From positions 44,155 to 108,154 of the forward strand of contig CAVJMG010000004.1 of assembly GCA_963650805.1 (NCBI GenBank): a DNA stretch of 64,000 nucleotides, read 5' to 3'. Shown one piece after another: positions 3,158 through 52,798 of the stretch. Each line of letters opens with the position of its first letter. Position 1 is the first letter of the stretch. The position numbers and the translations under genes were made by a program. This DNA is from an uncultured Bacteroidales bacterium. GTDB taxonomy: Bacteria > Bacillota_I > Bacilli_A > RFN20 > CAG-826. Below the pieces are notes generated by a model, which was not told the origin of the DNA, made no database searches, and saw only the letters and a list, made by a program, of their open reading frames with translations.

Positions 3158-3204
3158 AACGGTTTCTATTTGTCGCATACACAAATGAAAGGAGCGAAAC
3201 AAAT

Positions 3205-22309: not shown

Positions 22310-22642
22310 GCTGACTACCGTTTAATGGCAACCAGGCTATCTCAAGGAGACCCTTTGGCTTTGCGTCGCCAAGTTGCCTTGGCTTTGCTTTTATCTTTTG
22401 CTATTGTAGGACAACTAAAAAGGTTTTGAAAGCGAAAAGCGTTATTGTTGACGGAAAAATTGCATAAATTGTTATTTCAACTTCTTGATTTTTCTTTAGA
22501 TTGATCCCGCATGTTGTTTTGTCAACCGTCGTTTGCAATCCATAATGCGGTTCCTTCGCATGTTTTTATATCTAACTTTTTCTTCTTGGGGTCATCTCCG
22601 TAAGGTATAATCCATCAGACAAACAAAGGAGAATGACAGATA

Positions 22643-25600: not shown

Positions 25601-25675
25601 AGCTTCATCTCTGCCTTCCTCCCCGTCATGAAAATCGCGAACAAAAAGCCCATCGACGCGATTCACAACAAGTAA
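22643..25675 (+). CDS. Fused ABC ATPase plus FtsX/MacB-type permease (1010 aa).
   Basis: Walker A GKSGSGKST, signature LSGGQKQRVAIARA and Walker B IIFGDEPTGALD in the N-terminal domain. TM plus a ~450-aa extracytoplasmic domain. C-terminal IGILRAVGAKRIDVFKIF plus three TM helices. Good promoter upstream: TTGACG N17 TATAAT, then AAAGGAG. Confidence 0.8.
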   Translation: MLEVRNLKRVYKVKGGNSVYALNDVSLKFPETGLIFILGKSGSGKSTLLNVMGGLDNVDDGEIIINGKSSKTFSKVEMDSYRNTYLGFIFQEYNILSDFTVRENIALALQLQHKKATDEVIDKILEEVDLVGFGKRKPNELSGGQKQRVAIARALVKEPKIIFGDEPTGALDSNTGKQVFETLKRLSETRLVVIVSHDRDFAEHFGDRVIELRDGKVISDITKTAVVSEKTDDGLALIGDNIIRLDKNRPLKAEDLPIINQTIAKSEKEVYIVADSHVNSALCEAAKIDKDGNREEFVDTDPSKIEAGDDTFKPIKSRFSLGRAFRMGGKSLRVKPFRLAMTILLSTVAFSLFGASLTLSFFNAKSALISTIDRNGMTMLPFTVNDKSNSGLTDERAKAIEEETGVKVYCADSIESPIEVPSSSKQDLFHARYYKGRMAIDEDAVKDLGYAVVAGSLPSNENECMISLYAYYSYKDLGMGYSSSSADYIAPEKIEYSTVIGKTLSYYDRSSDYRSVVLTISGILDTKLLEKLASYRDKVDQINNTTDDGKALYYLSAGYQSSIHTSIFVKESETGKESDATASYPLKVSLGQDQDTGINFGYYPTHKDDFFFFDSNKSELQKGEAVCSVSGANMIYLHNADASSLSEGSLGYALVEIQNQQSPFRETYIQDNYKKIYEEYKTDSFFAKYDEATLSDEEGLKMAVNDFLFNYATSSDAYKGFSASWVAKEKEILKKVTDVSSIAPISGSLPTKSKGEQDSDIYEAWTFSLAGIDLTDTANGNSLRLSLSKAEFNEISAKLAANGYSSSSSTSSRIGYASWKGNASTLSKFLDSYLSKKNAYTNSGYDWSYLPDGFWYMAVSDSRIVLVETTATMIMVLTQVFLYIGIAMAAFSMLLFYNFISVSINNKKREIGILRAVGAKRIDVFKIFYSEAFIIAMVNFLLSTITVFVISYFVNQDLAKNEMFGFNLMSPDIRVVAALFGGAILASFISAFLPVMKIANKKPIDAIHNK

Positions 25676-25978: not shown

Positions 25979-27289
25979 ATGAGTTTGAGGAAACTGAAAA
26001 TGGGCTTATGGAAAAACGGCACTCCCTACAAGAAAAGGGTAATCGACCAAACGATAGAGGAATATTTAAGCGTCGCTGGGGCCGTATGCGTTGAGGGACC
26101 GAAGTGGTGCGGCAAAACTTTCACGTCCATTTTCCATTCAAAAAGTCGTTTTATGGTTGGGGATCCCGAGAGGGGCTTCTCCAATAGAGAACTCGCCAAA
26201 TTGGATCCGAATTTCGTGCTGCAGGGCGATGCCCCGAGGACGATTGATGAATGGCAAGAAGTGCCCTCCCTTTGGGATGCAGTTAGATTTGAGGTGGACA
26301 AGAGAGGCCAAAAGGGTCAATTCATCCTCACCGGTTCTTCGACACCCATGAAGAAAGGCGTTCTCCATAGCGGCGCTGGCAGAATCGTTCGGCTCAGAAT
26401 GAATACGATGTCCTTGTACGAAAGCGGAGATTCCACGGGGCAAGTTTCTCTCAAAGAACTCTGCGATAACCGCTTATCAAACCAAATGATTGGGGAGAAG
26501 TCTATTTTGGATTTGGCGACTTTCATCGTTCGTGGCGGTTGGCCTCAAAATATCGATGTCCCTTCAGCAAAATGCCACTTGATGCCAAAGGCCTATATTG
26601 AGACGCTTATTCACGAGGATATTCAGAAATTAGATGATTCAGTGGAGTATGATGAGCGCAAGTTTGAACTGCTCCTTAAATCTTTGGCGAGGAACGAATC
26701 AACGACTGCTTACGATGCGACGTTGCTTAACGACGTCATTCAAAACGACAGCGAGTCCATAGGCAGGAACACCATCGTTAAGTATTTGGACGTTATGAAA
26801 CGTTTATTCATATTGAATAATCAAGAGCCATACGCCCCTTCTCTTCGTTCGTCTTTGAGGGTAAAGCAAAATGAGAAAAGGCATTTCTCCGATCCGGCTA
26901 TGGCTTGCGCGCTATTGAACATTACCCCAAGCAAATTGTTGGGGGATATGCATACCTTCGGATTTTTGTTTGAGGCTCTTGTTGAGCGCGATTTGGCCGT
27001 TTACGCACAAGCCTTCGGCGGAAAGCTGTTCCATTATCAAGATTACAAAGACAATGAAATCGACGCTGTCATCGAGCTTGAAGATGGCCGTTGGTGCGGC
27101 ATAGAAATAAAATTAGGCTCAAATCAAATCGAAGAGGCCGCGGCTAATTTGAAAAGAATCAACGCCTCTTTGATAGCAAGCGGAAATGAAGGAGCTCAAT
27201 CCTTAATTGTCATCGTAGGCTTGGGGAACGCCGCTTACAAAAGAGAAGACGGCGTCCTCGTCGTTCCAATCTGCGGTTTAAAGGATTGA
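25979..27289 (+). CDS. AAA+ ATPase with a C-terminal DUF4143-like domain (AAA_14 + DUF4143 architecture).
   Basis: Walker A GPKWCGKT. Walker B FILTGSS. Clear paralog of 42046-43338 (ILFDEWQDAP, TGS, RMNPMSLFE blocks). Confidence 0.75.
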   Translation: MSLRKLKMGLWKNGTPYKKRVIDQTIEEYLSVAGAVCVEGPKWCGKTFTSIFHSKSRFMVGDPERGFSNRELAKLDPNFVLQGDAPRTIDEWQEVPSLWDAVRFEVDKRGQKGQFILTGSSTPMKKGVLHSGAGRIVRLRMNTMSLYESGDSTGQVSLKELCDNRLSNQMIGEKSILDLATFIVRGGWPQNIDVPSAKCHLMPKAYIETLIHEDIQKLDDSVEYDERKFELLLKSLARNESTTAYDATLLNDVIQNDSESIGRNTIVKYLDVMKRLFILNNQEPYAPSLRSSLRVKQNEKRHFSDPAMACALLNITPSKLLGDMHTFGFLFEALVERDLAVYAQAFGGKLFHYQDYKDNEIDAVIELEDGRWCGIEIKLGSNQIEEAAANLKRINASLIASGNEGAQSLIVIVGLGNAAYKREDGVLVVPICGLKD

Positions 27290-30799: not shown

Positions 30800-32353
30800 T
30801 CAGGCGATGCCGGTTGCGTATTTGACGATGTAGATGACCACGAAGGCGGCAGCGCAGCAAGCGACGGCGGTGTCTTCTTTCTTGAAGCGGTGAGCGCAGA
30901 GGGTCATCAAGGTGTAGGCGATGAAGCCCCAAGCGATGCCATCGCTGATGGAATAGGAGATGCACATGACGATGACGGTGAGGAAGCCGCTTCCGACGGC
31001 CACCCAATCGTGCCATTCAAGCTTTTCGAGGTTCCTGAACATGCAAACGCCAACGTAAACCAAGGCAAGCCCGGTGACGGCGCTATTGGAGAAAGCGCTG
31101 AGGGCGGGATAGATGACAAGGCTCAATCCGAAGAGGAGGCCGGTGATGACGGCGGCGAGCCCGGTGCGGGCACCCGCGGCGACGCCGGTGGTGGATTCGA
31201 CGAAGGAAGTGACGGTGGTGGTGCCGCAGATGGAGCCGAAGACGGTGCCGGCGGCATCAACGATCATCGCGGGGCGATCGTCGACGGTGATGTGACCTTC
31301 GTCATCGACCATGCCGGCGCCGGCTTCAACGCCGACGAGGGTTCCGGCGGTGTCGAAGAAGTCAACGAAGAGAAGAGAGAAGGTGAAGGCGTAGGACATC
31401 GGTTGGGCGAAGACGTCGAACCCGAAGAAGGGGGCGCCGAAGAGTTTGCCGAAATTGCCGATGGAAGCGATGGAATACTCCGGATCATAGAAGCCGGAGA
31501 ACCCTTCGACTTTGCAAGAACCGAGGGTTCCGCAGAGGATGGCCATGACGACGATGGCGATGATGACGGCGAACTTGTTGACCCAGAAGCCAAGCTTGGT
31601 CCTTTGGGGCAAGGCGGAAAGCGCTAAGACAACGACGACGCCGAGCAAGCCGAGAAGGACGGGGAGGCTCTTGAAGTTGCCGAGGCCGACCAAGGTGGCG
31701 CTGTTGTCGGCGATGATGCCCATGTTCTGGAAGCCGATGAAGCAGATGAAGAAGCCAATACCCGCGGAAATAGCGAATTTCAGCGACTTCGGAATACGTT
31801 TGACGATCCATCCTCTAAGAGGAGTAATGGAGATGATCAAGAAGAGAATGCCGTCGACCATGACTAAGCACATGGACTGGGCAAAGTTCCAACCCATGCC
31901 GAGCATGACGTTGAAGGCGACGAGGGAGTTAAGGCCAAGTCCAGAGGCTAAGCCAACCGGCAATTTGCCGTAGAATCCCATGAAGATGGTGGTGACGCAG
32001 GCGGAGATGGCGGTGGCGGCGAAGACGGCGGCGCGGACATCGCTCACGCTGGCCCAGTTGTTGCCATAAATGAGGATTTCAATGGTTTCGCCGACCTGCC
32101 TGACGTTGCCTTTGCTTAGAGCGAGAGCGCCGCCAGCCCAGTTGCTAGAAAGCATGTTGGCGTTGAGCGGAAGGATGTAGAACATCGCCAAGAAGATGAC
32201 GAGCCCGCCGATGAGCTCTTTGAGGATTGAGGATCCCCTGGTGGAAATTCCGAAGTAGTTGTCCATCCACTTCCCGAATTTCGTTTTTGGGCTGTGTCCG
32301 CCCGGTTGGTTGCTCTCTGGCGAGGTTTCAACAGCTGAGACTGCTTCTGCCAT
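30800..32353 (-). CDS. NCS2/AzgA-like purine permease (guanine/hypoxanthine/adenine permease, PbuG-like).
   Basis: KELIGGLVIFLAMFYILPLNANML AzgA-type N-terminal block. About 13 TM helices. Sits downstream of a guanine-type riboswitch and upstream of apt. Confidence 0.75.
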   Translation of the reverse strand: MAEAVSAVETSPESNQPGGHSPKTKFGKWMDNYFGISTRGSSILKELIGGLVIFLAMFYILPLNANMLSSNWAGGALALSKGNVRQVGETIEILIYGNNWASVSDVRAAVFAATAISACVTTIFMGFYGKLPVGLASGLGLNSLVAFNVMLGMGWNFAQSMCLVMVDGILFLIISITPLRGWIVKRIPKSLKFAISAGIGFFICFIGFQNMGIIADNSATLVGLGNFKSLPVLLGLLGVVVVLALSALPQRTKLGFWVNKFAVIIAIVVMAILCGTLGSCKVEGFSGFYDPEYSIASIGNFGKLFGAPFFGFDVFAQPMSYAFTFSLLFVDFFDTAGTLVGVEAGAGMVDDEGHITVDDRPAMIVDAAGTVFGSICGTTTVTSFVESTTGVAAGARTGLAAVITGLLFGLSLVIYPALSAFSNSAVTGLALVYVGVCMFRNLEKLEWHDWVAVGSGFLTVIVMCISYSISDGIAWGFIAYTLMTLCAHRFKKEDTAVACCAAAFVVIYIVKYATGIA

Positions 32354-32427: not shown

Positions 32428-32565
32428 CAAAGGAGAAAAACGCAAAAACGAGAGCTGCATTTTGCGACTTGGGCTTCTTTGTTTCCTTTCTTGGAATTCG
32501 TAGTGCCTGACTTTAAGGATCAGGCGTAGAAACTGTCGGACCACATCTCCAACATATACGACCTA
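32428..32565 (-). promoter_or_regulatory. Purine riboswitch, guanine/hypoxanthine type (C discriminator), with a downstream intrinsic terminator as the expression platform.
   Basis: Minus-strand RNA: UCGUA-UAUG-UUGGA(GAUGUGG)UCCGA-CAGUUUCUAC-GCCUGA(UCCUUAAAG)UCAGGC-ACUACGA. P1, P2 and P3 all pair. The J2/3 GUUUCUAC core is present. Terminator GCAAAAUG-N7-CGUUUUUGC plus UUUUU at about 32428-32470. RBS GGAGGA follows. Confidence 0.75.
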
Positions 32566-32701
32566 TCGACGTTAATTAAATATATATAGAAAAAAGGCCC
32601 TATCCACATGAAAGCGGTTTATCGAAGAAATTCCCCTTTTCTTGTTTTTGTTTGCCGGCACCCTTGATAGAATAATGGGCTAGAAAGAAGGTTTAAACAC
32701 C

Positions 32702-33414: not shown

Positions 33415-34785
33415 CTAAATCCTAAACAAATCTTCTAAGGCAAACGTGTGCACGTTATTCGGCTTCGATTCAATTAAATCCGCGGTGAAACCGCTTTTGG
33501 AAAATAGGTAGTATTCTCGCCTCAACTTGCTGGGGAAGACGCTGGCGCTTTCAATGAGATGGTTAAGCATGCTGGAGGAAAATTTAACTTTTCTATATTT
33601 GCATTCCATCACGATCAGCGTTTTTCCATTGTCGGACAACCCGTCGATCTCAACGGGCCTGTTCAAAATCGATTTTTCGACTTTGTAAGGTTTAAACGGT
33701 TTTTAAACGCCGCCTAATGCGCCTTCGGCGTTTAATTCGTCCATAAACATTCGGGAAACGTCTTCAAAGCCGAAACTAATGAAATCTTTAATTTCTTCTT
33801 TTTCCGATTCGAAGACGGCTTCGCCGTTGATTTTTACCGTTTCCTGATTGTCAAAGACGAAAATGTACCAAAACCTAAGCATTGGGTCCCCGATTTCGTA
33901 ATAAACGGTCTTTTGATTGCCTGCGTACGTTTCCCTTCGATCAAGGAGTTCTTGAGATAGCAAAAACGAGATGTATTTGCTTACTTTCGCTGGCTCTTCA
34001 TGGATATAGTCGGCTATCTCCTTAATGGTTCTTTTTCTTTTGGACACCGCGTGCAAAATCGAGTTATAGATATCCTACGTCCTCGTGGAATTGGACAGCA
34101 GCTGATCAGGTAATGTAAAGAAAGCTCCGTAGGGGTTGAACAACAGTTCCTTCACATTCTCTTCAAAGGATTTTCCAAAATCCATCGCCGACAAATAATA
34201 GGGGAAAGAAGACGTCAAAGATAAGAAACGGACTTTGTTCTCCTCGTCGACGGAGGTCAAATATTCAAGGCATTCCTTGTATCCGAGCTTCTTGATCTCC
34301 ATTTCGAAAGTTCTGCGTTTACACAAAGGCGAGTTGTGATTTTGAATTTCGTCTTTTAGCATCGAAACGTCGCTTCCGGATATTAGGAAAAATATATTGG
34401 CCGGAGCTTTATCGATGATGCTTTGAAGAACGGAGGGGAAACTGGGGTCCTGCTTGACAATATAGGGATACTCATCGATGGCGAAAACGAACCTTTGACC
34501 TTATGCTTTTTTTAGCAAAGCGCTTATGGCGGATTCATACGAATCAAAAACGAAAGTATCGGGCAATCCAAGCAAAGGGTTGATTTGGTGGGACAAGGAC
34601 CGCAAATTGCCATATTTGCTATCTTCTTTGGCTTGATAAAACAAACCGTTCTTCCCTTTGAGAAATTCGTTTATCAAATAGGATTTTCCTATTCTTCTTC
34701 GCCCATAAATAACTCCGAATTCCTTCTTTGCCCCGGAATATCTATTGTTTAGTTCCCTAAGCTCCGCTTTTCTGCCAACAAGCAT
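33415..34785 (-). pseudogene. Archaeal-type AAA+ ATPase gene (paralog of 8929-10287) interrupted by three in-frame stop codons (TAA, TAG, TAA) with no frameshift.
   Basis: Track ORFs 34501-34785, 34075-34362, 33703-34056 and 33415-33666 are all in one frame. Walker A GRRRIGKS, IDEYPYI, YYEIGDPMLRFWYIFVF all align colinearly to the intact paralog. Stops at about 34501-34503, 34072-34074 and 33700-33702. Confidence 0.6.
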
Positions 34786-35706: not shown

Positions 35707-36561
35707 CTATAGAAGCTCTTCGATATCTTTGAAGGAACCGACCATCTTATAGCAATCTTCTTCTAGCCCGGCCTTGATGATGTTGCCGTCATTGAAACCG
35801 ATGACGGGGAAGCGAGCGAGTTTGCCGCTGATGACGCCGGCCGAGCTATCCTCGATGACGATGGCTTCCTCGCTTGAGGCAACCCCCAATCCGGCGGCAA
35901 TTTCCTTATAGACCCAAGGGTGAGGCTTTGAGCAAAGCTCGCCTGTTGTTCCATACGCTCCGGGCTCTTTTCTTCTTCCCCCGGTGATTATGGCGTCATA
36001 AAAGGACAAGGGGTCGCCCATATCAAGTTCCCTGAACGCGGCGACGATTTCCGGGATGGCCTTGTAATCCAATCCGGACGTGACGAGCCCGATTTTGATG
36101 CCTTTGGCTTTGAGAAGAAGCAGGAATTTCTTCAGCCCCTCCCGGGGGACAAAGGCGTTTTCCTTTCCGGTGCCGTTTTGGGCGGCGAGGAGTTCTTCTC
36201 TGGCGATTCGGTGATACAAACTAGAAGCTTCGCTTAGGCTTTGTTTGAACCCGTATTTGGCTTTGCAATAAGAAAGGTGCTCATCGGTGGTGAACCCCTG
36301 AACGTAAGGTGCGTCTTCTTCTTGAAGGCGGAAACAGGGGTCCCCCAATAAAGTCGCGGTCGTTTTTTCAATGATGTAAACCCAAAACTCCTCGCTTTTG
36401 ACGGAGGTCCCGTCTAAATCCATAAGAACGTATTTGATTTTGGAAGGCTTCAAAGGCTTTTCCCAGGGGTAGTAGCAATCGACGCCGTTTTGGTGGATGC
36501 CGATAAGGGTGGACTCCCCTTGGTGGATGAAATCGATGTTGTTGAGGTTGTACTTAGGCAT
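35707..36561 (-). CDS. HAD-superfamily hydrolase (subfamily IA-like) with a ~45-aa N-terminal extension.
   Basis: Motif I VLMDLDGTSV. Motif II LVTSG. Motif III/IV KPHP...EDSSAGVISG. Confidence 0.7.
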   Translation of the reverse strand: MPKYNLNNIDFIHQGESTLIGIHQNGVDCYYPWEKPLKPSKIKYVLMDLDGTSVKSEEFWVYIIEKTTATLLGDPCFRLQEEDAPYVQGFTTDEHLSYCKAKYGFKQSLSEASSLYHRIAREELLAAQNGTGKENAFVPREGLKKFLLLLKAKGIKIGLVTSGLDYKAIPEIVAAFRELDMGDPLSFYDAIITGGRRKEPGAYGTTGELCSKPHPWVYKEIAAGLGVASSEEAIVIEDSSAGVISGKLARFPVIGFNDGNIIKAGLEEDCYKMVGSFKDIEELL

Positions 36562-36711: not shown

Positions 36712-39171
36712 ATGCATATGATTGAAAAGAGATATTTGGACGACTGGACGCTGCGGCGTGGAGAGACCCTCCTTAAAGCTAGCGTCCCCGGCGACATCAC
36801 GATGGACCATTACCGCGCGGGCTTGGTGCAAAATCCCTACGTTAGGGAAAATTATAAAGACGCCGAATGGATCGGCCATGAGGATTTCACTTACGAGACT
36901 TCCTTCGACGTTTCCCGAGAAGAATTATCAGAGGGCTCTAACGAACTCATTTTCGACGGCATCGACCTCTTTTCCGATGTTTTTCTTAACGGAACCCATC
37001 TTGGCTATACGAAAAACGCTTTCCTCCAGTATCGCTTTCAGGTGAATGGAATCTTGAAGGAGAAGGGAAATGTCTTGCGGGTGAAGATGCATAGCACCCT
37101 TGAAAAGGCGAGCCAAATCAGCGTTGATGGATACGCCGCTACGTTTAATATCCCTCGCATCTTCCTCAGAAAGCCCCAATGTCATTTTGGTTGGGATTGG
37201 GCTCCGAAAATCTGCGCTTACGGCATCACGGGCAAGGTCTATTTGGAGAGCAAAAACACGTATCACATCAGCGACGTCCATTACAAATCCGACGACAAAG
37301 GCAACCTCAATTTTTTTGTCGAGGTGAATTACACGACCCAAGACGTCACCGACATCGATTGCAACATCCTTGAAAAAGGAACGCCGAATGACGAAGACAA
37401 AATTATCGTCAAATTAGAAGATAGGCCCGGGTCTAAAGTTTTTCAGGAATATAAAGTCCCTTATACGGGAAAAAAGAATTTCCTTTCGCTCACTTATGAT
37501 TTTCCCAAGCTTTGGTGGCCTAGAGGATATGGCAAGCAACCTCTTTACCGCTATGTCGTCGAACTTTATCGAGGCGGGAAGAAAATCGATGAAAAGGAGG
37601 GGAGGTTTGCCTTTCGCAGCGTCTCCGTTATGGAAGTCGGCAAACCAAACGGGACAATCGGCTTCGATTTTCTGATAAACGGCAAAAAGATTTACCTCAA
37701 GGGAAGCAACTGGGTGCCTCCAGAGTGCTTTACCGGGGAGATGAAAGACGATAAATATCGAGACCTTTTGCTTTTGGCTAAGAACGCCAATCTCAACATT
37801 CTCCGGGTTTGGGGCGGGGGCAATTACGAAAGCGACTTGTTCTATGACCTTTGCGACGAATATGGGCTCATGGTTTGGCAAGACATTTGCCTTGCTTGCG
37901 GAGACATCCCCGAAGACGATAAAGAATTTGTCGATAACCTTATCGAAGAAGTGACCTATCAAGTTAAGCGCTTGCGCAACCACCCTTCCCTTATTTATTG
38001 GTGCGGCGGGAACGAAAAAACGGGAAGCTATGGCAATTTGATTACCCATGGGGACTTCTTGGTCAATTGCATTCTCTACGGGGTCATCTACGACCTTGAT
38101 GACACCCGTCCCTATAGGAGGCAATCCCCCCATAGCTATACGGATATCGGGAACGATTGGACGAGCGGAGACAGCCACGCGGGGTCTTTTGAGCTCGCTT
38201 TGGTGAAGGGCATGGAGGATTATCGGAGCTTAGTCGCTTCTAAAACCGTCCCCTTTGTAAGCGAATGCGCGGTGATGGGCCCTTCTAGTGTTGAGACCCT
38301 TGGCAAAATCTTCGGGCCCGAGCACCTTTGGCCGATGGACGAGATGTGGAAGGATCGCTTGATGGACAACCCCTATTCGGCCATCAAAATGGATTTCCCC
38401 CATCGCGAGCTTTATTACGCAGAGAGCCTTTATGGGAAAACTAACGGAATCGAGGATTTCGTGAAGAAAGGCATGCTGATTCACGCCGAAGCGTTGAAAT
38501 GCGAAGCCGAATACTCCCGTTCTCAGCGTGCGAATACCGGGGCCTTCCTCAATTGGATGTTCGACGACATTTGGCCTAGCGCCACCTGGGCCATAATCGA
38601 TTATTACCTTGAGCCGAAAGAAGCTTACTATGCTTTGAAGCGCTCCTTCGCTGATACTTTGGCTAGTTTCTATCAAGACGGTAGTGGAATCACCCATTTC
38701 TTTTTCAGCAACTCATCGAATAAGCGTTATACGGGCTCGGTTACTTACGGGATGAGAAAGGCAAACGGCGAAACATTGTTTCAAGATACCGTTTTCCTCG
38801 AAAAACAAGGCGACCACCCCATCGACATTTGCCTCCCCAAAACGCATTACGAAAAAGACGTCTATTTCTTCGCTTCTTTTGAGAAGAACGGCAAAACCGT
38901 TAAGACCTTCTATTCGCCTTCTTTTTGGAAGGATTTTCCGGCGAGCCATGACTTCACTTATTCATTTAGAAAAATCAATCGCATCCGCGCGGAAATTACG
39001 GTCAGGGCCAATGGCTTCCTTAAATCCCTTTTTATCCACTTCAAAGACAACTTCAAGTACATCTACGAAGACAATTACATCGATCTTGAAAAGGGCGAGG
39101 AGAGAACGATCTCCATTAAAGCCAAAGAACCTGCGGGTTTTGATGATTTAAAGTTCGAATCCTTCCAATAA
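36712..39171 (+). CDS. Glycoside hydrolase family 2, beta-mannosidase / exo-glucosaminidase-like. No signal peptide.
   Basis: GH2 blocks WDWAPK, NILRVWGGG, MVWQDI, WCGGNE (acid/base region) and PFVSECAVMG (nucleophile region). 819 aa. Confidence 0.75.
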   Translation: MHMIEKRYLDDWTLRRGETLLKASVPGDITMDHYRAGLVQNPYVRENYKDAEWIGHEDFTYETSFDVSREELSEGSNELIFDGIDLFSDVFLNGTHLGYTKNAFLQYRFQVNGILKEKGNVLRVKMHSTLEKASQISVDGYAATFNIPRIFLRKPQCHFGWDWAPKICAYGITGKVYLESKNTYHISDVHYKSDDKGNLNFFVEVNYTTQDVTDIDCNILEKGTPNDEDKIIVKLEDRPGSKVFQEYKVPYTGKKNFLSLTYDFPKLWWPRGYGKQPLYRYVVELYRGGKKIDEKEGRFAFRSVSVMEVGKPNGTIGFDFLINGKKIYLKGSNWVPPECFTGEMKDDKYRDLLLLAKNANLNILRVWGGGNYESDLFYDLCDEYGLMVWQDICLACGDIPEDDKEFVDNLIEEVTYQVKRLRNHPSLIYWCGGNEKTGSYGNLITHGDFLVNCILYGVIYDLDDTRPYRRQSPHSYTDIGNDWTSGDSHAGSFELALVKGMEDYRSLVASKTVPFVSECAVMGPSSVETLGKIFGPEHLWPMDEMWKDRLMDNPYSAIKMDFPHRELYYAESLYGKTNGIEDFVKKGMLIHAEALKCEAEYSRSQRANTGAFLNWMFDDIWPSATWAIIDYYLEPKEAYYALKRSFADTLASFYQDGSGITHFFFSNSSNKRYTGSVTYGMRKANGETLFQDTVFLEKQGDHPIDICLPKTHYEKDVYFFASFEKNGKTVKTFYSPSFWKDFPASHDFTYSFRKINRIRAEITVRANGFLKSLFIHFKDNFKYIYEDNYIDLEKGEERTISIKAKEPAGFDDLKFESFQ

Positions 39172-39382
39172 GTAAACAAAACAGCTCGGTTTTGCGGGTT
39201 TATTCCTCGCAGAATTGAGCTTTTTGATAAATTCATTGCCCCTTGGCTCGACCTAGATATCCCCCCTCGTCTAAGCGCCCCTAAAGGTTTTGGGTTCACT
39301 TATAAGCGGTTTTTCGCCAAACCTAAGCCCCTTTGCTTGCTCTTTGGGCGAATTGGCTTGAAGATAAGCGCGGGAAAAAGAA

Positions 39383-40120
39383 ATGCCTAACGTTGAAATA
39401 CAGCAACTTCAGGTCTGCTACCGCAACAAGAAGACCAAAAAGGAAAATATTGCCCTCAAAGGGATTTCCTGCTCTTTGAAAGAGGGTTCTTTCAACGTTC
39501 TTTTAGGGCCTTCGGGATCCGGGAAGACCACCTTATTGAAGGCCATCGCCGGAATTATCGATTTCGATGGCGACATTTTGGCTGATGGTAATTCCATTAA
39601 GGGGGTTCCTTCTTCCCTCCGCCAACTGGCTTACGTGAGCCAAGAATACGTTCTTTATCCCCATATGACCGTTTTTGACAATATCGCCTTCCCTTTGAAA
39701 GCGGTTGGGTCGAGCAAAGAGGAGATTGTCGAACTTGTCAAATCCGTTTCCGAGAAACTTGATTTGAGGCCCCTTTGGAGCAGAAAGCCCAAAGAACTTT
39801 CCGGCGGCCAGCAGCAGCGCGTTGCTTTGGCCAGGGCGATGGTAAAGAATCCTTCCATTTATCTTTTCGATGAGCCTTTGTCCAATCTCTCTAACGACAT
39901 GAGGGAGCGCGAGAGGATCTTCATTAAATCCGTCGCGAAAGAGTATGGCTCGCTTGCGGTTTATTCGACCCATTCCGTGAAAGAAGCTTTTGCGTTGGCC
40001 GACAACGTTCTCGTATTGAACGAGGGTGCTCTTATATTTAATGGCAATCAAGAAGAGTTCCGCCGAAGCGGAAACGCGATAATTAGGGACATGATCAATG
40101 CAGAAGGGTGCTGTTTATAA
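39383..40120 (+). CDS. ABC transporter ATP-binding protein, MalK/PotA-like short form. Paralogous cassette copy B.
   Basis: Walker A GPSGSGKTT. Q-loop YVSQEYVLYPHMT. Signature LSGGQQQRVALARA. Walker B IYLFDEPLSNL. H-loop YSTHS. Confidence 0.85.
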   Translation: MPNVEIQQLQVCYRNKKTKKENIALKGISCSLKEGSFNVLLGPSGSGKTTLLKAIAGIIDFDGDILADGNSIKGVPSSLRQLAYVSQEYVLYPHMTVFDNIAFPLKAVGSSKEEIVELVKSVSEKLDLRPLWSRKPKELSGGQQQRVALARAMVKNPSIYLFDEPLSNLSNDMRERERIFIKSVAKEYGSLAVYSTHSVKEAFALADNVLVLNEGALIFNGNQEEFRRSGNAIIRDMINAEGCCL

Positions 40121-40592
40121 CGAAGAGTTCGCCAAAAGATTAGGGAGAGAATTCGTTCTTTCTCTTGTTTTCATTTTGTCTTTCTTAACGTTGATGGTTG
40201 CCTTCCCTTTTCTTGCGTGCCGCCTCCTCAACGATTCGAATTTTGGCTGGATATCTGCCGCTCTATCCATTGTCATGGTTCTTCTTTCTTGGGGGATAAT
40301 CTATGCTTCTACCGCCCATCTCGCCCCTTCGTTGGCGCGCAAGAAATTGCTTAAGCGCCTTGAAAGCGCCAAAGGAAGCTTTTATCGTGGGGAAATTCTC
40401 TCCTGCGATAAAAAGCGCACCCCAGTACGCTTTATTTCATCTTATTTGATAACTATGAAGACTCTTGAGGGGCAAAAGAGCTTTTACTTCGACGAAGTAT
40501 TCGGCGAGCCTCCTTTTAAACAAGGCGAATTGGTGAACGTTGTTGTTAAAATGAACTTCCTTTATGAGATAAAGGAGGACGACCATGAATAG
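40098..40592 (+). CDS. Small 2-TM membrane protein with a soluble C-domain. Paralog of 6907-7395.
   Basis: Start overlaps the ATPase 3' end. TM helices FVLSLVFILSFLTLMVAFPFLA and ISAALSIVMVLLSWGIIYA. The C-terminal acidic tail is similar to its paralog. Confidence 0.5.
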   Translation: MQKGAVYNEEFAKRLGREFVLSLVFILSFLTLMVAFPFLACRLLNDSNFGWISAALSIVMVLLSWGIIYASTAHLAPSLARKKLLKRLESAKGSFYRGEILSCDKKRTPVRFISSYLITMKTLEGQKSFYFDEVFGEPPFKQGELVNVVVKMNFLYEIKEDDHE

Positions 40593-41175
40593 GATTTTTG
40601 CCAAAATCAAGTCGTGGTGGTACCTCTATCTCATCGCGCTGGTCGCTTTGCCTCTTGGGACTTGCTATCTCACTTATCTTGTAAATCTTCCCCGAAATGA
40701 AGAGACGATCACCTTGTTCATCGCTTCCTGCCAAAGCTCTACCAAAGGGCTTTACGAAGAGCTTATGAAGAATAGGCCCGATTACCTGAGGGAAATCAAC
40801 ATTCGCTCCTACGTTTACTATGAGGATACCTTTTCGACCTATTATTCTTATTTCGGGAGGGGAGACGCGGATATCGTCATTCTCCCAGAAAGCAAAATCG
40901 CATCCGCCTCAGTGACCTCATATTACAAAAAATGGTCCGAGGATATGATCGACTCCTCTTCCGCGTATTATTCCGTGGAATCCGGACTGGACGTGTATGG
41001 GAAATTGATTCATAAGAAAGGTGAAGACAATTCCTATATTTCGTATAAAGACGACGAGCACGACGAGAATTACTATCTCTTTTACGGGAAGAACTCTCTT
41101 CATTTGGGCCCTTTGTCTAATTCGAAATGGAATACGGCGTTGCTATTTGCAAAAATACTTGAGGGCAAAGAATGA
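40585..41175 (+). CDS. Single-TM anchored protein. Paralog of 7388-7948.
   Basis: RBS AAGGAGG. TM WWYLYLIALVALPLGTCYLTYL. Shared motifs with the paralog (ETITLF / DADIVILPE). Confidence 0.5.
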   Translation: MNRIFAKIKSWWYLYLIALVALPLGTCYLTYLVNLPRNEETITLFIASCQSSTKGLYEELMKNRPDYLREINIRSYVYYEDTFSTYYSYFGRGDADIVILPESKIASASVTSYYKKWSEDMIDSSSAYYSVESGLDVYGKLIHKKGEDNSYISYKDDEHDENYYLFYGKNSLHLGPLSNSKWNTALLFAKILEGKE

Positions 41176-42026
41176 AAAAGAAAGCCAAGGTCAATGACTA
41201 CGAAGTAAAAAGCCTTCCCGCGACTCGCAAAGAGCAATTTTTCGATATCCTTCGGCACCGTTACTTTTTGCTTCTTGGGCTCGGCGCCATTTTCTTGGTG
41301 TTTGCTCTCCCTCTTTTAGGCGGCCTGGCCTATAGGGATTTCTCTTTGCTTGGCTTAGAATCTTCGGAACTTTCTTCAAATGAGAAAGAAACCCTCCGTT
41401 TCGGCGTGGAAATCATTTTTTCGTTAATCTTTTTCGCTTCCTTGCTCGTTCTTTCCGTCGGTCTTTCAGGCATCAGCAAGGTGCTCCGCCAACTGCTTTA
41501 CGATGAACCGGTTTTCCTCAAGGAGGATTTCTTCTCGGGGATAAAGGAGAACTTCAAGCAGTACTTTTTGTTCTCCCTCATCCTTGCTTTGTTTTGGTTA
41601 GCGGCTCATTTGCTTTCCTATTTCGCTTCGAACTGGATTCTTAGAGGAATCTTCTATGGAATAAACATCGCGCTTGTTTTCCCACCGATTTACGTTGCTT
41701 TCTTTTTGTCGAGCTGCTATTCGAATTCCTTGGGTAAAAACATTCAAGTAGGGGTGTCGCTTTATTTGAAAGCCTTCCCTTCAATTTTTCTTACTTTTAT
41801 TTCTCTTTACGCCTTGGCGTTTTTAAATTACGTACCCATCCCTATTTTGAAATACGTCCTTTTGGTTTTGCTCTTCCTTTGCTACGTCCCTTTGTCTCTG
41901 CTTTTTGGGTATTGCAACCAAATCCGCCTTTACGATGAACTTATTAACAAGGAACAATTTCCGTCCAATTACCATAAGGGCCTTGCGGATTCCTATCAAA
42001 ACGCGTCGAAAGACGCTACAGAATAA
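41172..42026 (+). CDS. Polytopic membrane protein. Paralog of 7938-8795.
   Basis: ATGA overlap with the upstream gene. N-terminal TRKEQFFDILRHRYFLLLGLGAIFLVFALPLLGG. About 6 TM helices. Confidence 0.55.
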   Translation: MKKKAKVNDYEVKSLPATRKEQFFDILRHRYFLLLGLGAIFLVFALPLLGGLAYRDFSLLGLESSELSSNEKETLRFGVEIIFSLIFFASLLVLSVGLSGISKVLRQLLYDEPVFLKEDFFSGIKENFKQYFLFSLILALFWLAAHLLSYFASNWILRGIFYGINIALVFPPIYVAFFLSSCYSNSLGKNIQVGVSLYLKAFPSIFLTFISLYALAFLNYVPIPILKYVLLVLLFLCYVPLSLLFGYCNQIRLYDELINKEQFPSNYHKGLADSYQNASKDATE

Positions 42027-42045: not shown

Positions 42046-43338
42046 TTAATTTCGCAAGGATCCAATAGGGATGACGATAACGCCGTCTTCACGCCTATAT
42101 CCGTACTCCGTGCCCGTTATTATCAATTTCAAATCCGGTTTCCTTAAAGGGCATTGTTTCTCTTTTTTGTTGTATTCTTTTATCAAGCGTTCAATTTCGC
42201 ACAAATGCTTTGCTCCTTTGTCTACTTCGTATTCTCCTAATTTGAATTCAATTAAAGCATATCGTCCGTCCTCTAGATGAAGTACGGCATCGGCTTCTAA
42301 TCCATACCTATCGTGGTAATAAGAAACGACACCGCCTTTTTCTTGGGAGTATATTTTCAGATCTCTTATGCACAAAGACTCAAACAGGAATCCTAAGGTT
42401 TTGAAGTCTTTGTAAAAATATTCAGGAGATAGACCTAGAGCCGCAACGGCGAGAGAGGGATCCACGAAATTCCTCTTTTTGCCAGTTCTGATATTGGATT
42501 TGCTCCTAATCGCCGGAGACCAGGGCTCGATGTCTTCAGTGATATAGAGCTTCTCGAGCGCGTTTATATAATCGTAGAATGTCGTTTTTGAGATGTCGTA
42601 ATTGCTTTTGACGTCGTCATAGATTGTTTTTGTGCTGCTGAGTGTGCAAATGTTTCTGGCATAAGACAGCAGAATCGTTCTTACCCATGTTGGATTTCTT
42701 GTTTTGTGGTCTAGCTGTGAAACGTCTCTTGAATAGGTTTGCTTAAATAGGTCTTTTGCAATCAACTGCTGTTGGTTTACATTTCCGTCGAAAAGCAAGC
42801 ATCGTGGCCATCCACCTACGCAGATGGCGTTGATGATATCTTCTATGGTCATTTTTGATTTGCATCCGGAAAATGAATTGGGCGAGTCGAATAGTTCCAT
42901 CAAACTGACTTCGCCCGTTGATTTGCCCATTTCGAACAAACTCATTGGGTTCATTCTCACCGTTGCTATTCTTAACGTTCCGGTGTGCGGCGTCGCCACT
43001 TGCGCCGAGGTGGAGCCGGTTAAATAGAATGAGCCAACGTCAGCCGGATTGTCATCACAGTTTTTACGAATTGTGCCCCAGATTTTGGGCGCATCTTGCC
43101 ACTCGTCAAACAAAATAGGTTTTGGGTTTTTCAATAATTGCGACGGGGAAATGGATGCAATAGCGAGGAGATTGTCCCTTTGCTCTTCGTCTTGAAACTC
43201 GATTACGGTTTTCGCCCTTTGTTTTGCCGTTGTTGTTTTGCCGCACCCTTTTGGCCCGAAGATACAAACGGCATTATAGACTTTCGTTATCTCGTCTAAA
43301 GCCTTATCTATTACTCTGTTTTTATATCCGTAAGTCAT
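42046..43338 (-). CDS. AAA+ ATPase with a DUF4143-like C-terminal domain (paralog of 25979-27289).
   Basis: Walker A GPKGCGKT. ILFDEWQDAP. Start set at the MTYGYKNRV ATG (RBS gagg). The track start at 43410 adds 24 residues and runs into the upstream repeats. Confidence 0.75.
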   Translation of the reverse strand: MTYGYKNRVIDKALDEITKVYNAVCIFGPKGCGKTTTAKQRAKTVIEFQDEEQRDNLLAIASISPSQLLKNPKPILFDEWQDAPKIWGTIRKNCDDNPADVGSFYLTGSTSAQVATPHTGTLRIATVRMNPMSLFEMGKSTGEVSLMELFDSPNSFSGCKSKMTIEDIINAICVGGWPRCLLFDGNVNQQQLIAKDLFKQTYSRDVSQLDHKTRNPTWVRTILLSYARNICTLSSTKTIYDDVKSNYDISKTTFYDYINALEKLYITEDIEPWSPAIRSKSNIRTGKKRNFVDPSLAVAALGLSPEYFYKDFKTLGFLFESLCIRDLKIYSQEKGGVVSYYHDRYGLEADAVLHLEDGRYALIEFKLGEYEVDKGAKHLCEIERLIKEYNKKEKQCPLRKPDLKLIITGTEYGYRREDGVIVIPIGSLRN

Positions 43339-43398
43339 ATTTAAGAACCTCAAATCTATTGCTGTCTTCTTTTTCGATGCAGTTAAATAAAATTGCAA

Positions 43399-43472
43399 TA
43401 AAACGGACACTTTCGTTGTAAATAAGTGAAGAACTTCGTGGTAACAAAACGAACACTTTCGTGATGAAATTA
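43399..43472 (-). promoter_or_regulatory. Three direct repeats of about 23-24 bp (ACACTTTCGTTGTAAA / AACTTCGTGGTAAC / ACACTTTCGTGATGAAA) upstream of the DUF4143 ATPase gene.
   Basis: AAAACGGACACTTTCGTTGTAAA and AAAACGAACACTTTCGTGATGAAA are near-identical, with a degenerate copy between them. Confidence 0.35.
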
Positions 43473-45129: not shown

Positions 45130-46170
45130 ATGGATAACCCTTTCAATGCAACATTTGGCGAATTGCCCCAAAGCTTTGTTTCCCGGGAGAAAGATATCGC
45201 CACGATTCGAACGGCGTTTGGCGGAGACAATCCCGAATCTAAGGTTTATGTTATTTCAGGGGCTAGAGGCAGTGGGAAAACCGTCTTGCTTACAGCGCTA
45301 ACCAACTTGTTTAAAGATGATGGCTATATTTGCGTTGACCTTAATCCTTATGAAGATTTGAACGAACAATTTGCTTCAAAACTGTATGAAGGCGGAAGGC
45401 TGAGGAAGCTATTCCTACACCCCGAGTTTTCCTTTTCTTTTAAAGGCGTCTCCTTAACCGTCAGCGGGGACACCGAGATTAGCAACGTCTACACCTTCAT
45501 AGAAAAAATGCTCTCGTATCTTAAAAAGAAGAAAAAAAGGGTTTTGATAACCATCGATGATGTTTCCAACAACGACTGTGTCAAAAGCTTTATTTTTTCG
45601 TTTCAACAGATGATAAGAAGTGGGTATGACGTATTTCTGCTTGTTACTGGTCTCTATGAAAACGTCTCGGAATTGGAGAGAAACAAAAGCCTTACCTTCT
45701 TCTTGCGGGCGCCAAAGCTCAATCTGGAGCCTTTAAATCTTTTTGAAATCGTCTCGCTTTACAAAAGCCTTCTGAGTTTGGGGGAATCCGACGCCATCAA
45801 AGCCGCGAAATTGACGAAAGGATATGCTTATGCCTACCAGCTCATGGGCTCGCTGATTTATACGAATGGCATTAAGCCCGATATTCTTGACGAATATGAC
45901 AAAAGGCTGATTCAAAACTCTTATTCGTTAACCTGGGAAAAGCTCACCCGCAAAGAAAAAGAATTTCTCTACGCCCTGGCTGATAGCACGTCTCAAAAAG
46001 ACATAACCAAGGCCCTTAATATGAGCAACGGCAATTATCAAACCTACAAGAAAAGGCTCGCTGATAGGGGACTTATCTTGGCCAAGGAAAGGGGCAAAGT
46101 CGATTTTGCTTTACCTAGGTTTAAAGAATTCGTAAGGCTTGAAAAGGCTTTATCCGACGACGAAGAATGA
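45130..46170 (+). CDS. P-loop ATPase with a C-terminal helix-turn-helix (LuxR/wHTH-like). Likely a sequence-specific DNA-binding ATPase.
   Basis: Walker A GARGSGKT. Walker B VLITIDDV. C-terminal LTRKEKEFLYALADSTSQKDITKALNMSNGNYQTYKKRLADRGLI. Confidence 0.6.
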   Translation: MDNPFNATFGELPQSFVSREKDIATIRTAFGGDNPESKVYVISGARGSGKTVLLTALTNLFKDDGYICVDLNPYEDLNEQFASKLYEGGRLRKLFLHPEFSFSFKGVSLTVSGDTEISNVYTFIEKMLSYLKKKKKRVLITIDDVSNNDCVKSFIFSFQQMIRSGYDVFLLVTGLYENVSELERNKSLTFFLRAPKLNLEPLNLFEIVSLYKSLLSLGESDAIKAAKLTKGYAYAYQLMGSLIYTNGIKPDILDEYDKRLIQNSYSLTWEKLTRKEKEFLYALADSTSQKDITKALNMSNGNYQTYKKRLADRGLILAKERGKVDFALPRFKEFVRLEKALSDDEE

Positions 46171-52069: not shown

Positions 52070-52172
52070 AAAGGCTTTCTTGAGTAGATGGTCCGCGTTA
52101 AGTGCTTGGGGATGGGAGGTCGCCCCAAGACGAAGGAACAATCCGCGGTGGGCCATCGCTGCCGCTTGGATA
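52070..52172 (+). promoter_or_regulatory. THF (tetrahydrofolate) riboswitch.
   Basis: GAGUAGAUGGUCCGCGUUAAGUG...GAUGGGAGGUCG...ACGAAGG...CCGCGGUGGGCCAUC...CCGCU matches the THF-I aptamer. Helices covary: GAUGGCC/GGCCAUC and CUUGGGG/CCCCAAG. Downstream CCUCCCC can pair with the RBS GAGGAAAGG. Confidence 0.8.
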
Positions 52173-52201: not shown

Positions 52202-52798
52202 ATGGGGAAATCAGATTCGCTTATTCGACGCATGTGCGTCGACGGCATGCTTGTCGGTTTGTTTGTCGTGCTTACGCTGGTCAATATCAAGATTGGTCCG
52301 ATGATCAGGGTGAGCTTTGGCTCTTTGCCCGTTGTTTTCGCTTCTTTGATTTTCGGCCCCGTTGATGGTCTTATCATCGCTATTCTTGGCGAATTCATTT
52401 CTCAGACCATCAATTATGGTTTTAGCTTGACCACTCCGATTTGGGTTTTGGTTCCTGCGGTAAGAGCGCTCATAATCGGCGGCGTTTCTTCTCTTTTCAA
52501 ACGCAAGGGAGAACTGCTTGAACGGCACCTCGTATTTTATTTTATTACTCTTGTCTTTGCTTCTCTTGCCGTTACGGCGGCGAATACCGGAGCTTCCTTT
52601 TTGGATGCTTATCTTTATCAATACCCCTTCGCTTTCGTTTGGGCCACGAACGCGATTCGGGCCGCTATCTCGATAGTGACATCTATCGTTATTGGCGTTG
52701 TTTGCATCCCCTTGGTCAAGGCCATTGGTTCGTTGGTTTATCCTGGCGATCGTTATCGCTACAAAAAGAACTCTAAAACTGACGATGACAAAAAATAA
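52202..52798 (+). CDS. ECF-transporter S component, folate-family (FolT-like).
   Basis: About 6 TM helices and 198 aa. Directly downstream of the THF riboswitch. Confidence 0.7.
   Translation: MGKSDSLIRRMCVDGMLVGLFVVLTLVNIKIGPMIRVSFGSLPVVFASLIFGPVDGLIIAILGEFISQTINYGFSLTTPIWVLVPAVRALIIGGVSSLFKRKGELLERHLVFYFITLVFASLAVTAANTGASFLDAYLYQYPFAFVWATNAIRAAISIVTSIVIGVVCIPLVKAIGSLVYPGDRYRYKKNSKTDDDKK

Follow-up and report, generated by a model that had tools for sequence, protein, structure and literature searches.

Paralogous four-protein ABC modules beside glycoside hydrolase genes of uncultured Bacilli are candidate importers of glycan fragments

The DNA analysed here (the window, 64 kb in full) carries two gene cassettes, A and B, in each of which the gene of an ABC ATPase is followed by those of three membrane proteins (Table 1). 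Two questions are raised by this arrangement: what does the ATPase power, and why are there two such cassettes? An earlier note on this DNA had described their common gene order (ATPase, 2-TM protein, 1-TM protein, 6-TM protein) and the N-terminal TRKEQF and TRKKQF motifs of the polytopic proteins, and both are present as described. In both loci, each cassette gene runs 4 to 23 nt into the next one. Paralogy reaches beyond the ATPases. The ATPases are 40% identical (E = 9e-56) and the 6-TM proteins 28% identical (E = 4e-16). Plain BLASTP of the window's own 2-TM pair and 1-TM pair is not significant, and the homology of these proteins is detectable only with orthologue-based profiles. Compared by hhalign, such profiles give probabilities of 98.5% for the 1-TM proteins (E = 3e-15), 97.4% for the 2-TM proteins (E = 1e-11) and 95% for the C-terminal soluble domain of the 2-TM protein alone (E = 2e-8), while control runs with mismatched component pairs stay below 1%. 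Alignment and profile comparison together confirm, at the level of sequence, that all four components are homologous far beyond chance. A and B are best read as anciently diverged copies of one self-contained four-protein ABC module.

Table 1. Features of loci A and B and of their surroundings, in window coordinates.
Feature	Position	Strand	Remarks
Locus A: surface GH123-like protein (~1040 aa)	from 84	+	C-terminal portion only, cut by window edge; upstream part of locus A operon is 84-4533
Locus A: two membrane-anchored surface proteins	1340-3157, 3205-4533	+	Paralogous to each other; upstream in locus A operon
Locus A: cytoplasmic GH20C-type beta-N-acetylhexosaminidase	4594-6198	+	Pfam Glyco_H_20C_C, Glyco_hydro_20; 7 nt before ATPase
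Cassette A, four-gene span	6206-8795	+	
Cassette A: ABC ATPase, 234 aa	6206-6910	+	VSLGQ at 6611-6625, remaining motifs canonical
Cassette A: 2-TM protein, 162 aa	6907-7395	+	
Cassette A: 1-TM protein, 186 aa	7388-7948	+	Predicted SBP-lobe-like ectodomain
Cassette A: 6-TM protein, 285 aa	7938-8795	+	TRKKQF at 8004
ROK-family protein near locus A	10545-11891	-	Pfam ROK; HTH-like N-terminal region
HAD-family hydrolase	35707-36561	-	Pfam HAD_2, Hydrolase; divergent from GH2
Locus B: cytoplasmic GH2 beta-mannosidase homologue, 819 aa	36712-39171	+	No signal peptide
Terminator-like hairpin	39183-39226	+	16-bp stem 39183-39221, then TTTTT; 12 nt past GH2 stop
Cassette B, four-gene span	39383-42026	+	
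Cassette B: ABC ATPase, 245 aa	39383-40120	+	Walker A GPSGSGKT at 39506-39529, LSGGQ at 39797-39811
Cassette B: 2-TM protein, 164 aa	40098-40592	+	23-nt overlap with ATPase gene
Cassette B: 1-TM protein, 196 aa	40585-41175	+	
Cassette B: 6-TM protein, 284 aa	41172-42026	+	TRKEQF at 41223
ECF S component gene	52202-52798		Inside window

The cassette ATPase is, judged by its sequence, a sugar-importer NBD of the MalK/UgpC/MsmX type without the C-terminal regulatory (TOBE) domain. It matches the NCBIfam profiles UgpC (E = 6e-63, for the ATPase of cassette B), GlcV (8e-63) and MalK (1e-54), whereas its match to FtsE is far weaker (1e-37). Its top PDB matches are sugar-importer NBDs (1e-45 to 2e-53). 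The UgpC profile is covered at positions 3-213 of 357, and the PDB sugar-importer chains, which are 355-406 aa long, align to the ATPase over the first ~220-240 residues only; the cassette ATPases comprise 234-245 aa and have no TOBE/OB domain at the C-terminus. Both enzymes keep their Walker A and Q-loop, the catalytic Glu of Walker B and the His of the H-loop. Among known systems, the CUT1 type I importers (MalEFGK2, MsmEFGK and the pneumococcal ABCNG with its shared MsmK) have closely related ATPases, namely the MalK, UgpC, GlcV, SugC and MsmX NBDs, from which the cassette enzyme differs in lacking TOBE.

The membrane proteins set the module apart from CUT1 importers, to which it adds two membrane proteins of no known family. 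None of the three is covered by Pfam or NCBIfam, and the 2-TM protein has no sequence match in the PDB either. CUT1 importers contain MalF/MalG-type (BPD_transp_1) domains with an EAA coupling loop, but no cassette protein matches BPD_transp_1 in Pfam, and the 64-kb window holds no such permease, also by phmmer with real permeases as queries. In cassette B, the 2-TM protein consists of a TM hairpin and a ~85-aa C-terminal domain that is presumably cytoplasmic. The 1-TM protein consists of an N-terminal signal-anchor and a ~160-aa ectodomain, whose predicted fold is that of one lobe of a MalE-type (family-1) sugar-binding protein. The ectodomain aligns to 125-132 residues of solute-binding proteins (SBPs) of 370-410 aa; a sequence-level match of the 1-TM protein to SBPs is not found, and the cassette encodes no two-lobed extracellular solute-binding protein. 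In place of the SBP of CUT1 importers there is this single lobe on its N-terminal TM anchor.

In the 6-TM protein, a unit of an amphipathic helix and a TM hairpin occurs three times, and two methods suggest a fold, three-fold pseudo-symmetric, that may be like that of CysZ and CTL proteins. The match to CysZ/CTL structures is modest (Foldseek E > 0.1, TM-scores 0.42-0.53), and the model matches no importer membrane domains. The protein has no sequence similarity to the CysZ sulfate permease, CTL (SLC44) or yeast PNS1; for none of these is an ABC ATPase partner known, and the transport activity of CTL is disputed. Its conserved motifs are LPxxRKxQF, ExxFxxDFFxG and FDxxINxxxYPxxYxKGL, and invariant residues concentrate at the two termini and in the loop between TM2 and TM3. 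By the topology that we infer, the only motifs conserved family-wide would face the cytoplasm. The window copy also matches DUF624 (PF04854) at 17.1 bits (E = 0.0063), below the Pfam gathering threshold of 24.2 bits. Sub-threshold matches of this kind, in a segment of TM2, the amphipathic loop and TM3 (best E = 0.0016-0.006), are given by only 2 of 16 and 2 of 45 members of the 6-TM family, with the window copy in both sets. DUF624/YesL proteins are of a similar size class and are likewise associated with sugar ABC and glycosidase loci, but an ATPase, a 2-TM protein and a half-SBP of their own are not known to accompany them, and the function of DUF624 is unknown. The module is probably previously undescribed, with membrane parts unlike those of any known ABC transporter.

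The module is found in ~14 lineages of uncultured Bacilli/Bacillota, and in all but one it adjoins glycoside hydrolase genes (GH2, GH20C, GH38, GH36, GH28, GH127). The overlapping four-gene unit is kept in every locus examined (A and B of the window, L003-6, L008-14, L017, L018, L021, L022/23, L024/25, L026, L027 and L028). A-type modules are fixed in an operon with GH123-like, GH20C and GH38 or GH36 genes in at least 8 species. GH20C lies directly upstream of the ATPase gene in all seven A-type loci with enough upstream sequence, and a GH38, GH36 or GH78-like gene lies downstream of the cassette. The first gene of the operon, full-length in relatives, matches GH123_cat; the upstream surface genes of locus A have orthologues in L008, L011, L012 and L017, and their window copies (84-4533) have no Pfam match. 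The GH20C of locus A resembles that of S. pneumoniae (5a69, E = 7e-90) and has no signal peptide. No further transporter gene is found in the A-type operon. B-type modules are flanked by GH2, GH127, GH28 or GH63-like genes and often have no surface protein gene directly adjoining. The subfunctionalisation that the earlier note had suggested fits this division.

We favour the reading that each module works on its own as an importer of glycan fragments, specialised for its substrate and new in its architecture, and we give it a probability of about 0.5. The four proteins would form one complex, import would be the direction of transport, and the best explanation for the two copies is that A and B are specialised for different glycan fragments, the substrates being putative. 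Oligosaccharides would be released by the enzymes and anchored proteins that the same loci place at the surface, and the anchored half-SBP would capture them or dock a donor protein. On the cytoplasmic side, an ATPase dimer would engage the conserved amphipathic helices of the 6-TM protein as likely coupling elements, and probably also the cytoplasmic domain of the 2-TM protein. Import would be driven by ATP binding and hydrolysis, and the adjacent cytoplasmic exo-glycosidases would complete degradation (GH20C for module A, the GH2 beta-mannosidase for module B). This reading is favoured by the conservation and overlap of the four genes, their linkage to glycoside hydrolases, the sugar-importer type of the ATPase and the predicted folds, and also by the lack of any other transporter in the A-type operon although its GH20C has no signal peptide. 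CUT1 importers have the same genomic role, beside cytoplasmic exo-glycosidases of glycan-degradation loci. In the pneumococcal paradigm, whose logic matches the one proposed here, an ABC importer supplies N-glycan fragments to cytoplasmic GH38 and GH125, and the same locus encodes GH20C (PMC5215778). Against import, canonical SBPs close on their ligand, which a single-lobe SBP cannot do likewise; the CysZ/CTL fold match is modest; and a 2026 study makes the case that CTL proteins might not transport anything (PMC13160678). A known design of non-canonical ABC importer is that of the ECF transporters (EcfAA'T plus S component), whose membrane components are small and which have no soluble SBP of two lobes. 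They differ in their pair of CbiO-type ATPases, their T component and the other fold of their 6-TM S component, and the cassette proteins match no ECF families.

In 4 of the ~14 lineages the cluster includes, or has nearby, canonical permeases of the MalFG type that lack their own ATPase, and the cassette ATPase might therefore serve those permeases. The module would then be an accessory or an engine, its short MalK-type ATPase powering BPD_transp_1 permeases encoded elsewhere in the manner of the MsmX/MsmK ATPase shared in other Firmicutes, and the membrane proteins would have auxiliary roles such as tethering, regulation or SBP docking, in parallel with the unexplained DUF624/YesL genes of sugar ABC operons. 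In L022/L023 the cassette and two BPD_transp_1 permease genes form a tight co-directional string in which there is no further ATPase gene, in L007 the cassette is followed by an SBP-sized gene and two permeases, and L026 and L028 have a divergent permease operon at a distance of 6-9 kb. Near most cassettes, however, as in the whole window, there is no canonical permease, and the overlap of the ATPase gene is always with the three membrane-protein genes and never with permease genes. The ATPase is exactly of the type that drives MalFG-like permeases, and the DUF624 matches, weak and consistent, agree with an auxiliary role; two complete, co-diverged copies per genome ill fit a shared generic engine. 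That no other ATPase lies nearby tells nothing either way, because the sugar ABC operons of Firmicutes normally do not include one (PMC5215778). We consider this explanation unlikely.

The surface-anchored proteins with which the A-type operon opens, three in number and including the GH123-like enzyme, would also suit a machine that transports nothing. Its ATPase would drive transmembrane signalling as in FtsEX or MacB, activating or organising surface glycosidases and glycan-binding proteins, or the module would be a glycan sensor. FtsEX/MacB-type (type VII) systems have an FtsX-type 4-TM permease with an extracytoplasmic domain, whereas no FtsX or MacB-like domain is found in the cassette proteins, and the ATPase matches type I importer NBDs at about 1e-63, well ahead of FtsE. 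The 1-TM ectodomain might serve for docking and not for ligand binding, and the disputed transport competence of the CTL fold and the regulators beside many loci are in keeping with this proposal. Against it, B-type cassettes often lack a directly adjoining surface protein gene, and cytoplasmic exo-glycosidases need an importer, of which the A-type operon encodes no other. Such a function is improbable.

The earlier note had further proposed that ATPases A and B act in trans as an asymmetric heterodimer, in which one ATP site is of consensus type and the other degenerate. The signature of B is canonical LSGGQ, as had been said, and that of A reads VSLGQ: the first Gly is replaced and L is changed to V, while Ser, the second Gly and Gln are kept. 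All eight aligned A-type sequences (the window copy and 7 relatives) have (V/I)SLGQCQR without exception, and LSIGQ occurs in one B-type ATPase (L018), which together argue for a conserved variant and not for decay. Signature variants of the LSxGQ kind do occur in degenerate sites of ABCC proteins, and at least two species have both A and B (that of the window and that of contig CAVEMS010000001.1, by a genome scan with A-type patterns only), two points in favour of a trans pair. With known asymmetric ABC ATPases, the shared feature is a paralogue (A) of non-consensus signature. Both ATPases retain DEP (catalytic Glu) and THS/THD (H-loop His), and since B has none of the degenerate Walker B/H-loop found in asymmetric dimers, their reciprocal degeneracy is missing. 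Each ATPase gene overlaps, and is translationally coupled to, the membrane-protein genes of its own complete and separate module. B-like LSGGQ cassettes occur in broader Bacilli lineages, with no A-type locus in the stretches analysed there. In the one other species known to have A and B, two strains carry the same frameshift in the A ATPase gene, and in one of them the A 6-TM gene is also shortened by 424 bp and GH38 is split, although the B locus is intact in four assemblies. These sequences point to an A module that is decaying there and is not rescued by the B ATPase. We therefore hold a trans heterodimer to be very improbable; the invariant VSLGQ with intact catalytic motifs and the decay of A despite an intact B count for autonomous modules.

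Cassette B lies downstream of a cytoplasmic GH2, as had been noted. The enzyme has the Pfam domains Glyco_hydro_2_N2, Glyco_hydro_2, Glyco_hydro_2_C and Ig_mannosidase, and its best PDB matches are beta-mannosidases (5n6u, E = 7e-103; BtMan2A, 1e-77). The hairpin and T-run reported after GH2 exist and look like a strong terminator, and in the orthologous locus (L003-L006) an opposite-strand 763-aa gene sits between GH2 and the cassette; on these two grounds GH2 is a neighbour of cassette B and probably not its operon partner. The leader upstream of the cassette (39172-39382) matches no Rfam family, and no consensus promoter was found in it. The HAD gene had been described as divergent from the cassette, when in fact it is divergent from GH2; the orthologous locus also has HAD next to GH2, and the two HAD proteins are 79% identical. 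AraC, LacI or ROK regulators stand beside many loci, and the ROK protein near locus A has an orthologue (58% identical) at L009 3598-4824, divergent from the A-type operon of L009.

Two four-gene cassettes of the window, locus A and locus B, each encode an ABC ATPase and proteins with two, one and six transmembrane segments (2-TM, 1-TM and 6-TM proteins). The gene coordinates (table below) bear out an earlier note that locus B has the gene order of locus A. The motifs cited there are present (LSGGQ at 39797 and TRKEQF at 41223; SLGQCQ at 6614 and TRKKQF at 8004). The HAD gene, described there as divergent from the cassette, is in fact divergent from the glycoside hydrolase (GH) gene GH2. In both loci, adjacent cassette genes share 4 to 23 nt. 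The ATPase of locus A starts 7 nt after the GH20 stop, and the spacer between GH2 and the ATPase of locus B is 211 nt. GH2 is homologous to beta-mannosidase (5n6u, E=7e-103) and GH20 to pneumococcal GH20C (E=7e-90); a signal peptide is absent from both.

Coordinates of features in the window and in related loci of other genomes (L numbers)
Feature	Sequence	Position	Strand
Surface protein gene	Window	1340-3157	+
Surface protein gene	Window	3205-4533	+
GH20, ahead of cassette A	Window	4594-6198	
ABC ATPase, locus A	Window	6206-6910	
2-TM protein, locus A	Window	6907-7395	
1-TM protein, locus A	Window	7388-7948	
6-TM protein, locus A	Window	7938-8795	
ATPase_2/DUF234 or AAA_14/DUF4143	Window	8929-10299	-
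Third ABC cluster	Window	13761-17341	-
215-aa ATPase, third cluster	Window	14909-15556	-
265-aa secreted protein, third cluster	Window	16544-17341	-
1323-aa protein	Window	18338-22309	
c-di-GMP-I riboswitch	Window	22324-22399	-
1010-aa fusion protein	Window	22643-25675	+
ATPase_2/DUF234 or AAA_14/DUF4143	Window	25979-27289	+
Xanthine/uracil-family permease	Window	30800-32353	
Purine riboswitch	Window	32481-32581	-
ATPase_2/DUF234 or AAA_14/DUF4143	Window	33415-34785	-
HAD	Window	35707-36561	-
GH2, locus B	Window	36712-39171	+
Hairpin and TTTTT	Window	39183-39226	
Leader, cassette B	Window	39227-39382	
ABC ATPase, locus B	Window	39383-40120	+
2-TM protein (164 aa), locus B	Window	40098-40592	+
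1-TM protein (196 aa), locus B	Window	40585-41175	+
6-TM protein (284 aa), locus B	Window	41172-42026	+
ATPase_2/DUF234 or AAA_14/DUF4143	Window	42046-43410	-
ATPase_2/DUF234 or AAA_14/DUF4143	Window	45130-46170	+
THF riboswitch	Window	52078-52169	+
ECF S-component	Window	52202-52798	
A-type locus, frameshifted ATPase	L009	8264-8970	
A-type locus, frameshifted ATPase	L029	2814-5437	
Cassette with BPD_transp_1 permeases	L022/L023	1368-11426	
425-aa protein P0016	L019/L020	99-1376	

In pairwise alignment, the A and B ATPases are 40% identical (E=9e-56) and the 6-TM proteins are 28% identical across their full length (E=4e-16). Plain BLASTP of A against B gave no significant match for the 2-TM pair or the 1-TM pair of the window, and detecting their homology needed profiles built from orthologues. 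The B 1-TM protein matches A-type 1-TM proteins from other species (E=7e-9), while the 2-TM protein of L018, a B-type locus of another genome, matches that of locus A (E=1e-6). In profile-profile comparison of A with B, the 1-TM proteins reached a probability of 98.5% (E=3e-15) and the 2-TM proteins one of 97.4% (E=1e-11); the soluble C-terminal domain of the latter reached 95% (E=2e-8) on its own, and every mismatched control pair stayed below 1%. The pairwise comparison called for in the earlier note thus finds homology in all four components and not in the ATPases alone; the duplication takes in the whole module and is old.

That note explained the unusual signature motif of the A ATPase by subfunctionalisation or by a heterodimer of the A and B ATPases acting in trans. 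All eight A-type ATPases aligned carry the variant, (V/I)SLGQCQR, in which Ser, the second Gly and Gln of the signature are kept. The signature is LSGGQ in B-like ATPases of broader Bacilli and LSIGQ in L018. Neither type has lost any of the Walker A, Q-loop, Walker B-Glu or H-loop motifs. Asymmetric ABC dimers typically show reciprocal degeneracy, which is absent from the A and B ATPases. In a second species with both loci, two strains (99.4% identical) have a 1-nt frameshift in the A ATPase in common. One of them (L029) has also lost 424 bp from its A 6-TM gene, and its GH38 is split. Four assemblies of this species have an intact B locus. Such damage to A beside an intact B resembles loss of the A module following inactivation of its ATPase, not rescue by B. 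The conserved variant, the whole catalytic motifs and the decay of A make an ATPase pair acting in trans very improbable; the other half of the proposal, paralogous and subfunctionalised modules, stands. In the other frameshifted strain (L009), one codon is missing just past Walker A.

The four cassette genes are found together and in the same order in every locus fetched. An exhaustive HMMER search places 1178 clusters at 50% identity in the 6-TM family (E<=1e-3), 399 of them at E<=1e-30, whereas a word-indexed homologue search undercounted it (5, later 15 clusters). These clusters come from uncultured gut and rumen Bacillota, and the family is a marker of glycan-degradation loci. The 1-TM family comprises 48 clusters at 90% identity, some labelled as Bacilli or Firmicutes (Bacillota) MAG proteins. 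An exact-sequence look-up of the window 6-TM protein returned no identical database sequence, the nearest entry being 99% identical. None of the three cassette membrane proteins reaches a Pfam or NCBIfam threshold. P0016 covers only about 45% of the 6-TM profile; its gene lies at a contig start and adjoins Hsp33, and in the same locus rnc and smc come immediately after plsX.

At least eight species share a conserved A-type operon; the reference-genome scan used A-type sequences as its only query. The operon runs from a surface GH123-like gene through two anchored surface proteins, a cytoplasmic GH20C and the cassette to a GH38/GH36/GH78-like gene. GH20C, ROK and GH38 are linked likewise in the pneumococcal N-glycan locus, which is supplied by a canonical ABC importer with a shared ATPase (PMC5215778). 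B-type and B-like cassettes neighbour GH2 with HAD, GH127 with a GH63-like gene, GH28 or DJ-1/PfpI, and many have AraC, LacI or ROK regulators close by. The two surface proteins ahead of GH20 in the window are paralogues; each has a signal peptide and is anchored by a C-terminal TM segment, and neither has a Pfam domain. Both are also conserved 5' of GH20C in four further species, and we regard them as candidate partners of cassette A in glycan binding. Eleven related A-type loci from a single MAG project (L007-L017) carry incompatible names (Gemmiger formicilis, Parasutterella excrementihominis, Phocaeicola dorei, Holdemanella and others). We do not take such names as true taxa because differently named loci have up to eight syntenic genes and roughly 45-70% protein identity to the window.

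The spacer between GH2 and cassette B opens with a 16-bp hairpin and a T-run, a good candidate for an intrinsic terminator. In the orthologous locus, GH2 and the cassette are separated by a 763-aa gene read from the opposite strand. In the related locus L021, the ATPase is preceded by a short opposite-strand gene fragment at the contig edge, with no GH2 within the 380 bases present upstream; in L018 a DJ-1/PfpI gene comes before it. On these grounds, GH2 and cassette B, conserved neighbours in two species, are probably separate transcription units. Searches of the cassette B leader found no consensus promoter, riboswitch or other Rfam family, and the structure predicted for it is unremarkable (z=-1.67).

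The cassette ATPase matches the UgpC, GlcV and MalK profiles over the nucleotide-binding domain (NBD) only (positions 3-213 of 357), and the solved structures that it matches best all belong to sugar-importer ATPases of 355-406 aa. Judged from these matches, it is a sugar-importer NBD minus the regulatory domain. The 2-TM protein has a conserved C-terminal domain of about 85 aa, cytoplasmic by topology. That this is the missing regulatory (TOBE) domain is an idea without sequence support; 14 2-TM members gave no TOBE match in Pfam, and the PDB gave no match at all. The 1-TM protein was modelled from a 49-sequence alignment (pLDDT 92.5). Its ectodomain resembles family-1 sugar-binding proteins (MalE, RafE, YesO, MsmE and others) but spans only one lobe; similarity to solute-binding proteins (SBPs) is absent at the sequence level. 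Lipoprotein processing of this protein was ruled out since the Cys in its TM segment is not conserved.

The 6-TM model (pLDDT 86.3, pTM 0.83) consists of three units, each an amphipathic helix and a TM hairpin. It resembles the CysZ/CTL fold, with weak Foldseek E-values and TM-scores of 0.42-0.53. Similarity to ABC exporter membrane domains is no better than noise, and the listed matches include no membrane domain of a type I importer. The CTL-type fold is described as three-fold pseudo-symmetric, and it has been questioned whether CTL proteins transport at all (PMC13160678, 2026). Three segments contain the residues invariant across the 6-TM family, namely the N-terminal amphipathic helix, TM2-TM3 loop and C-terminal tail; the positive-inside rule places all three in the cytoplasm. 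Such a pattern would fit an ATPase-coupling surface rather than a substrate site.

A genuine sugar-importer ATPase is tied into a conserved operon with three membrane proteins outside Pfam and NCBIfam, one of which looks like half a sugar-binding protein and another like CysZ/CTL. To our knowledge, the recognised ABC importers all draw on a limited set of membrane-domain folds and on two-lobed binding proteins. The module is unannotated, widespread, unusual in composition and tied to glycan catabolism in uncultured Bacilli, and it is more interesting than the earlier proposal. It is most economically read as an autonomous importer serving its own glycoside hydrolase locus, because the four-gene unit is invariant, its genes overlap, the folds fit and no other transporter was found in the A-type operon or in the whole 64-kb window. 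Such an importer would combine CUT1-derived parts (NBD, SBP lobe) with new membrane parts. The two modules would differ in substrate, A being specialised for glycan fragments that contain HexNAc and B for those that contain beta-mannosides. The main rival reading is that the ATPase actually serves canonical MalFG-type permeases, which share a gene string with the cassette in L022/L023 and L007 and lie near it in L026 and L028. It is also possible that the module is a non-transport machine. For a new class of ABC importer, our estimate is about 0.35. Here a CysZ/CTL-fold membrane protein driven by the sugar-importer ATPase would replace the MalFG-type permease, a membrane-anchored single-lobe SBP would present the substrate, and the 2-TM protein would stand in functionally for the regulatory domain that the ATPase has lost. 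If so, this would for the first time place the CysZ/CTL fold in a functional context, that of an ATP-coupled translocator, and would give a lead on the role of DUF624/YesL-like proteins in sugar operons. If the module is the transporter, the uptake step of these loci has so far escaped annotation, metabolic models have a gap for these abundant uncultured Bacilli, and a new type must be added to the classification of ABC transporters.

The L022/L023 string (Bacilli MAG GCA_017468925.1) is co-directional and holds the cassette, two canonical BPD_transp_1 permeases, a DUF4838 protein, a Big_2 protein and a 994-aa surface protein, with no further ATPase. In the window, the third ABC cluster has its ATPase between 382-aa and 268-aa proteins, each with an N-terminal TM, a large ectodomain, C-terminal TM helices and no Pfam match; these look like split FtsX/MacB-type permeases. 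The cluster also holds a secreted protein. The 1010-aa protein is an ABC ATPase fused with an FtsX-type permease. The 64 kb contain five ATPase_2/DUF234 or AAA_14/DUF4143 genes, the third of which is split into four short ORFs. Each cassette is followed by one such gene on the opposite strand, and the two subfamilies differ. The purine riboswitch 5' of the permease and the THF riboswitch 5' of the ECF S-component gene are ordinary arrangements. The c-di-GMP-I riboswitch (59.8 bits) lies directly 5' of the 1323-aa protein, which is without a Pfam domain.
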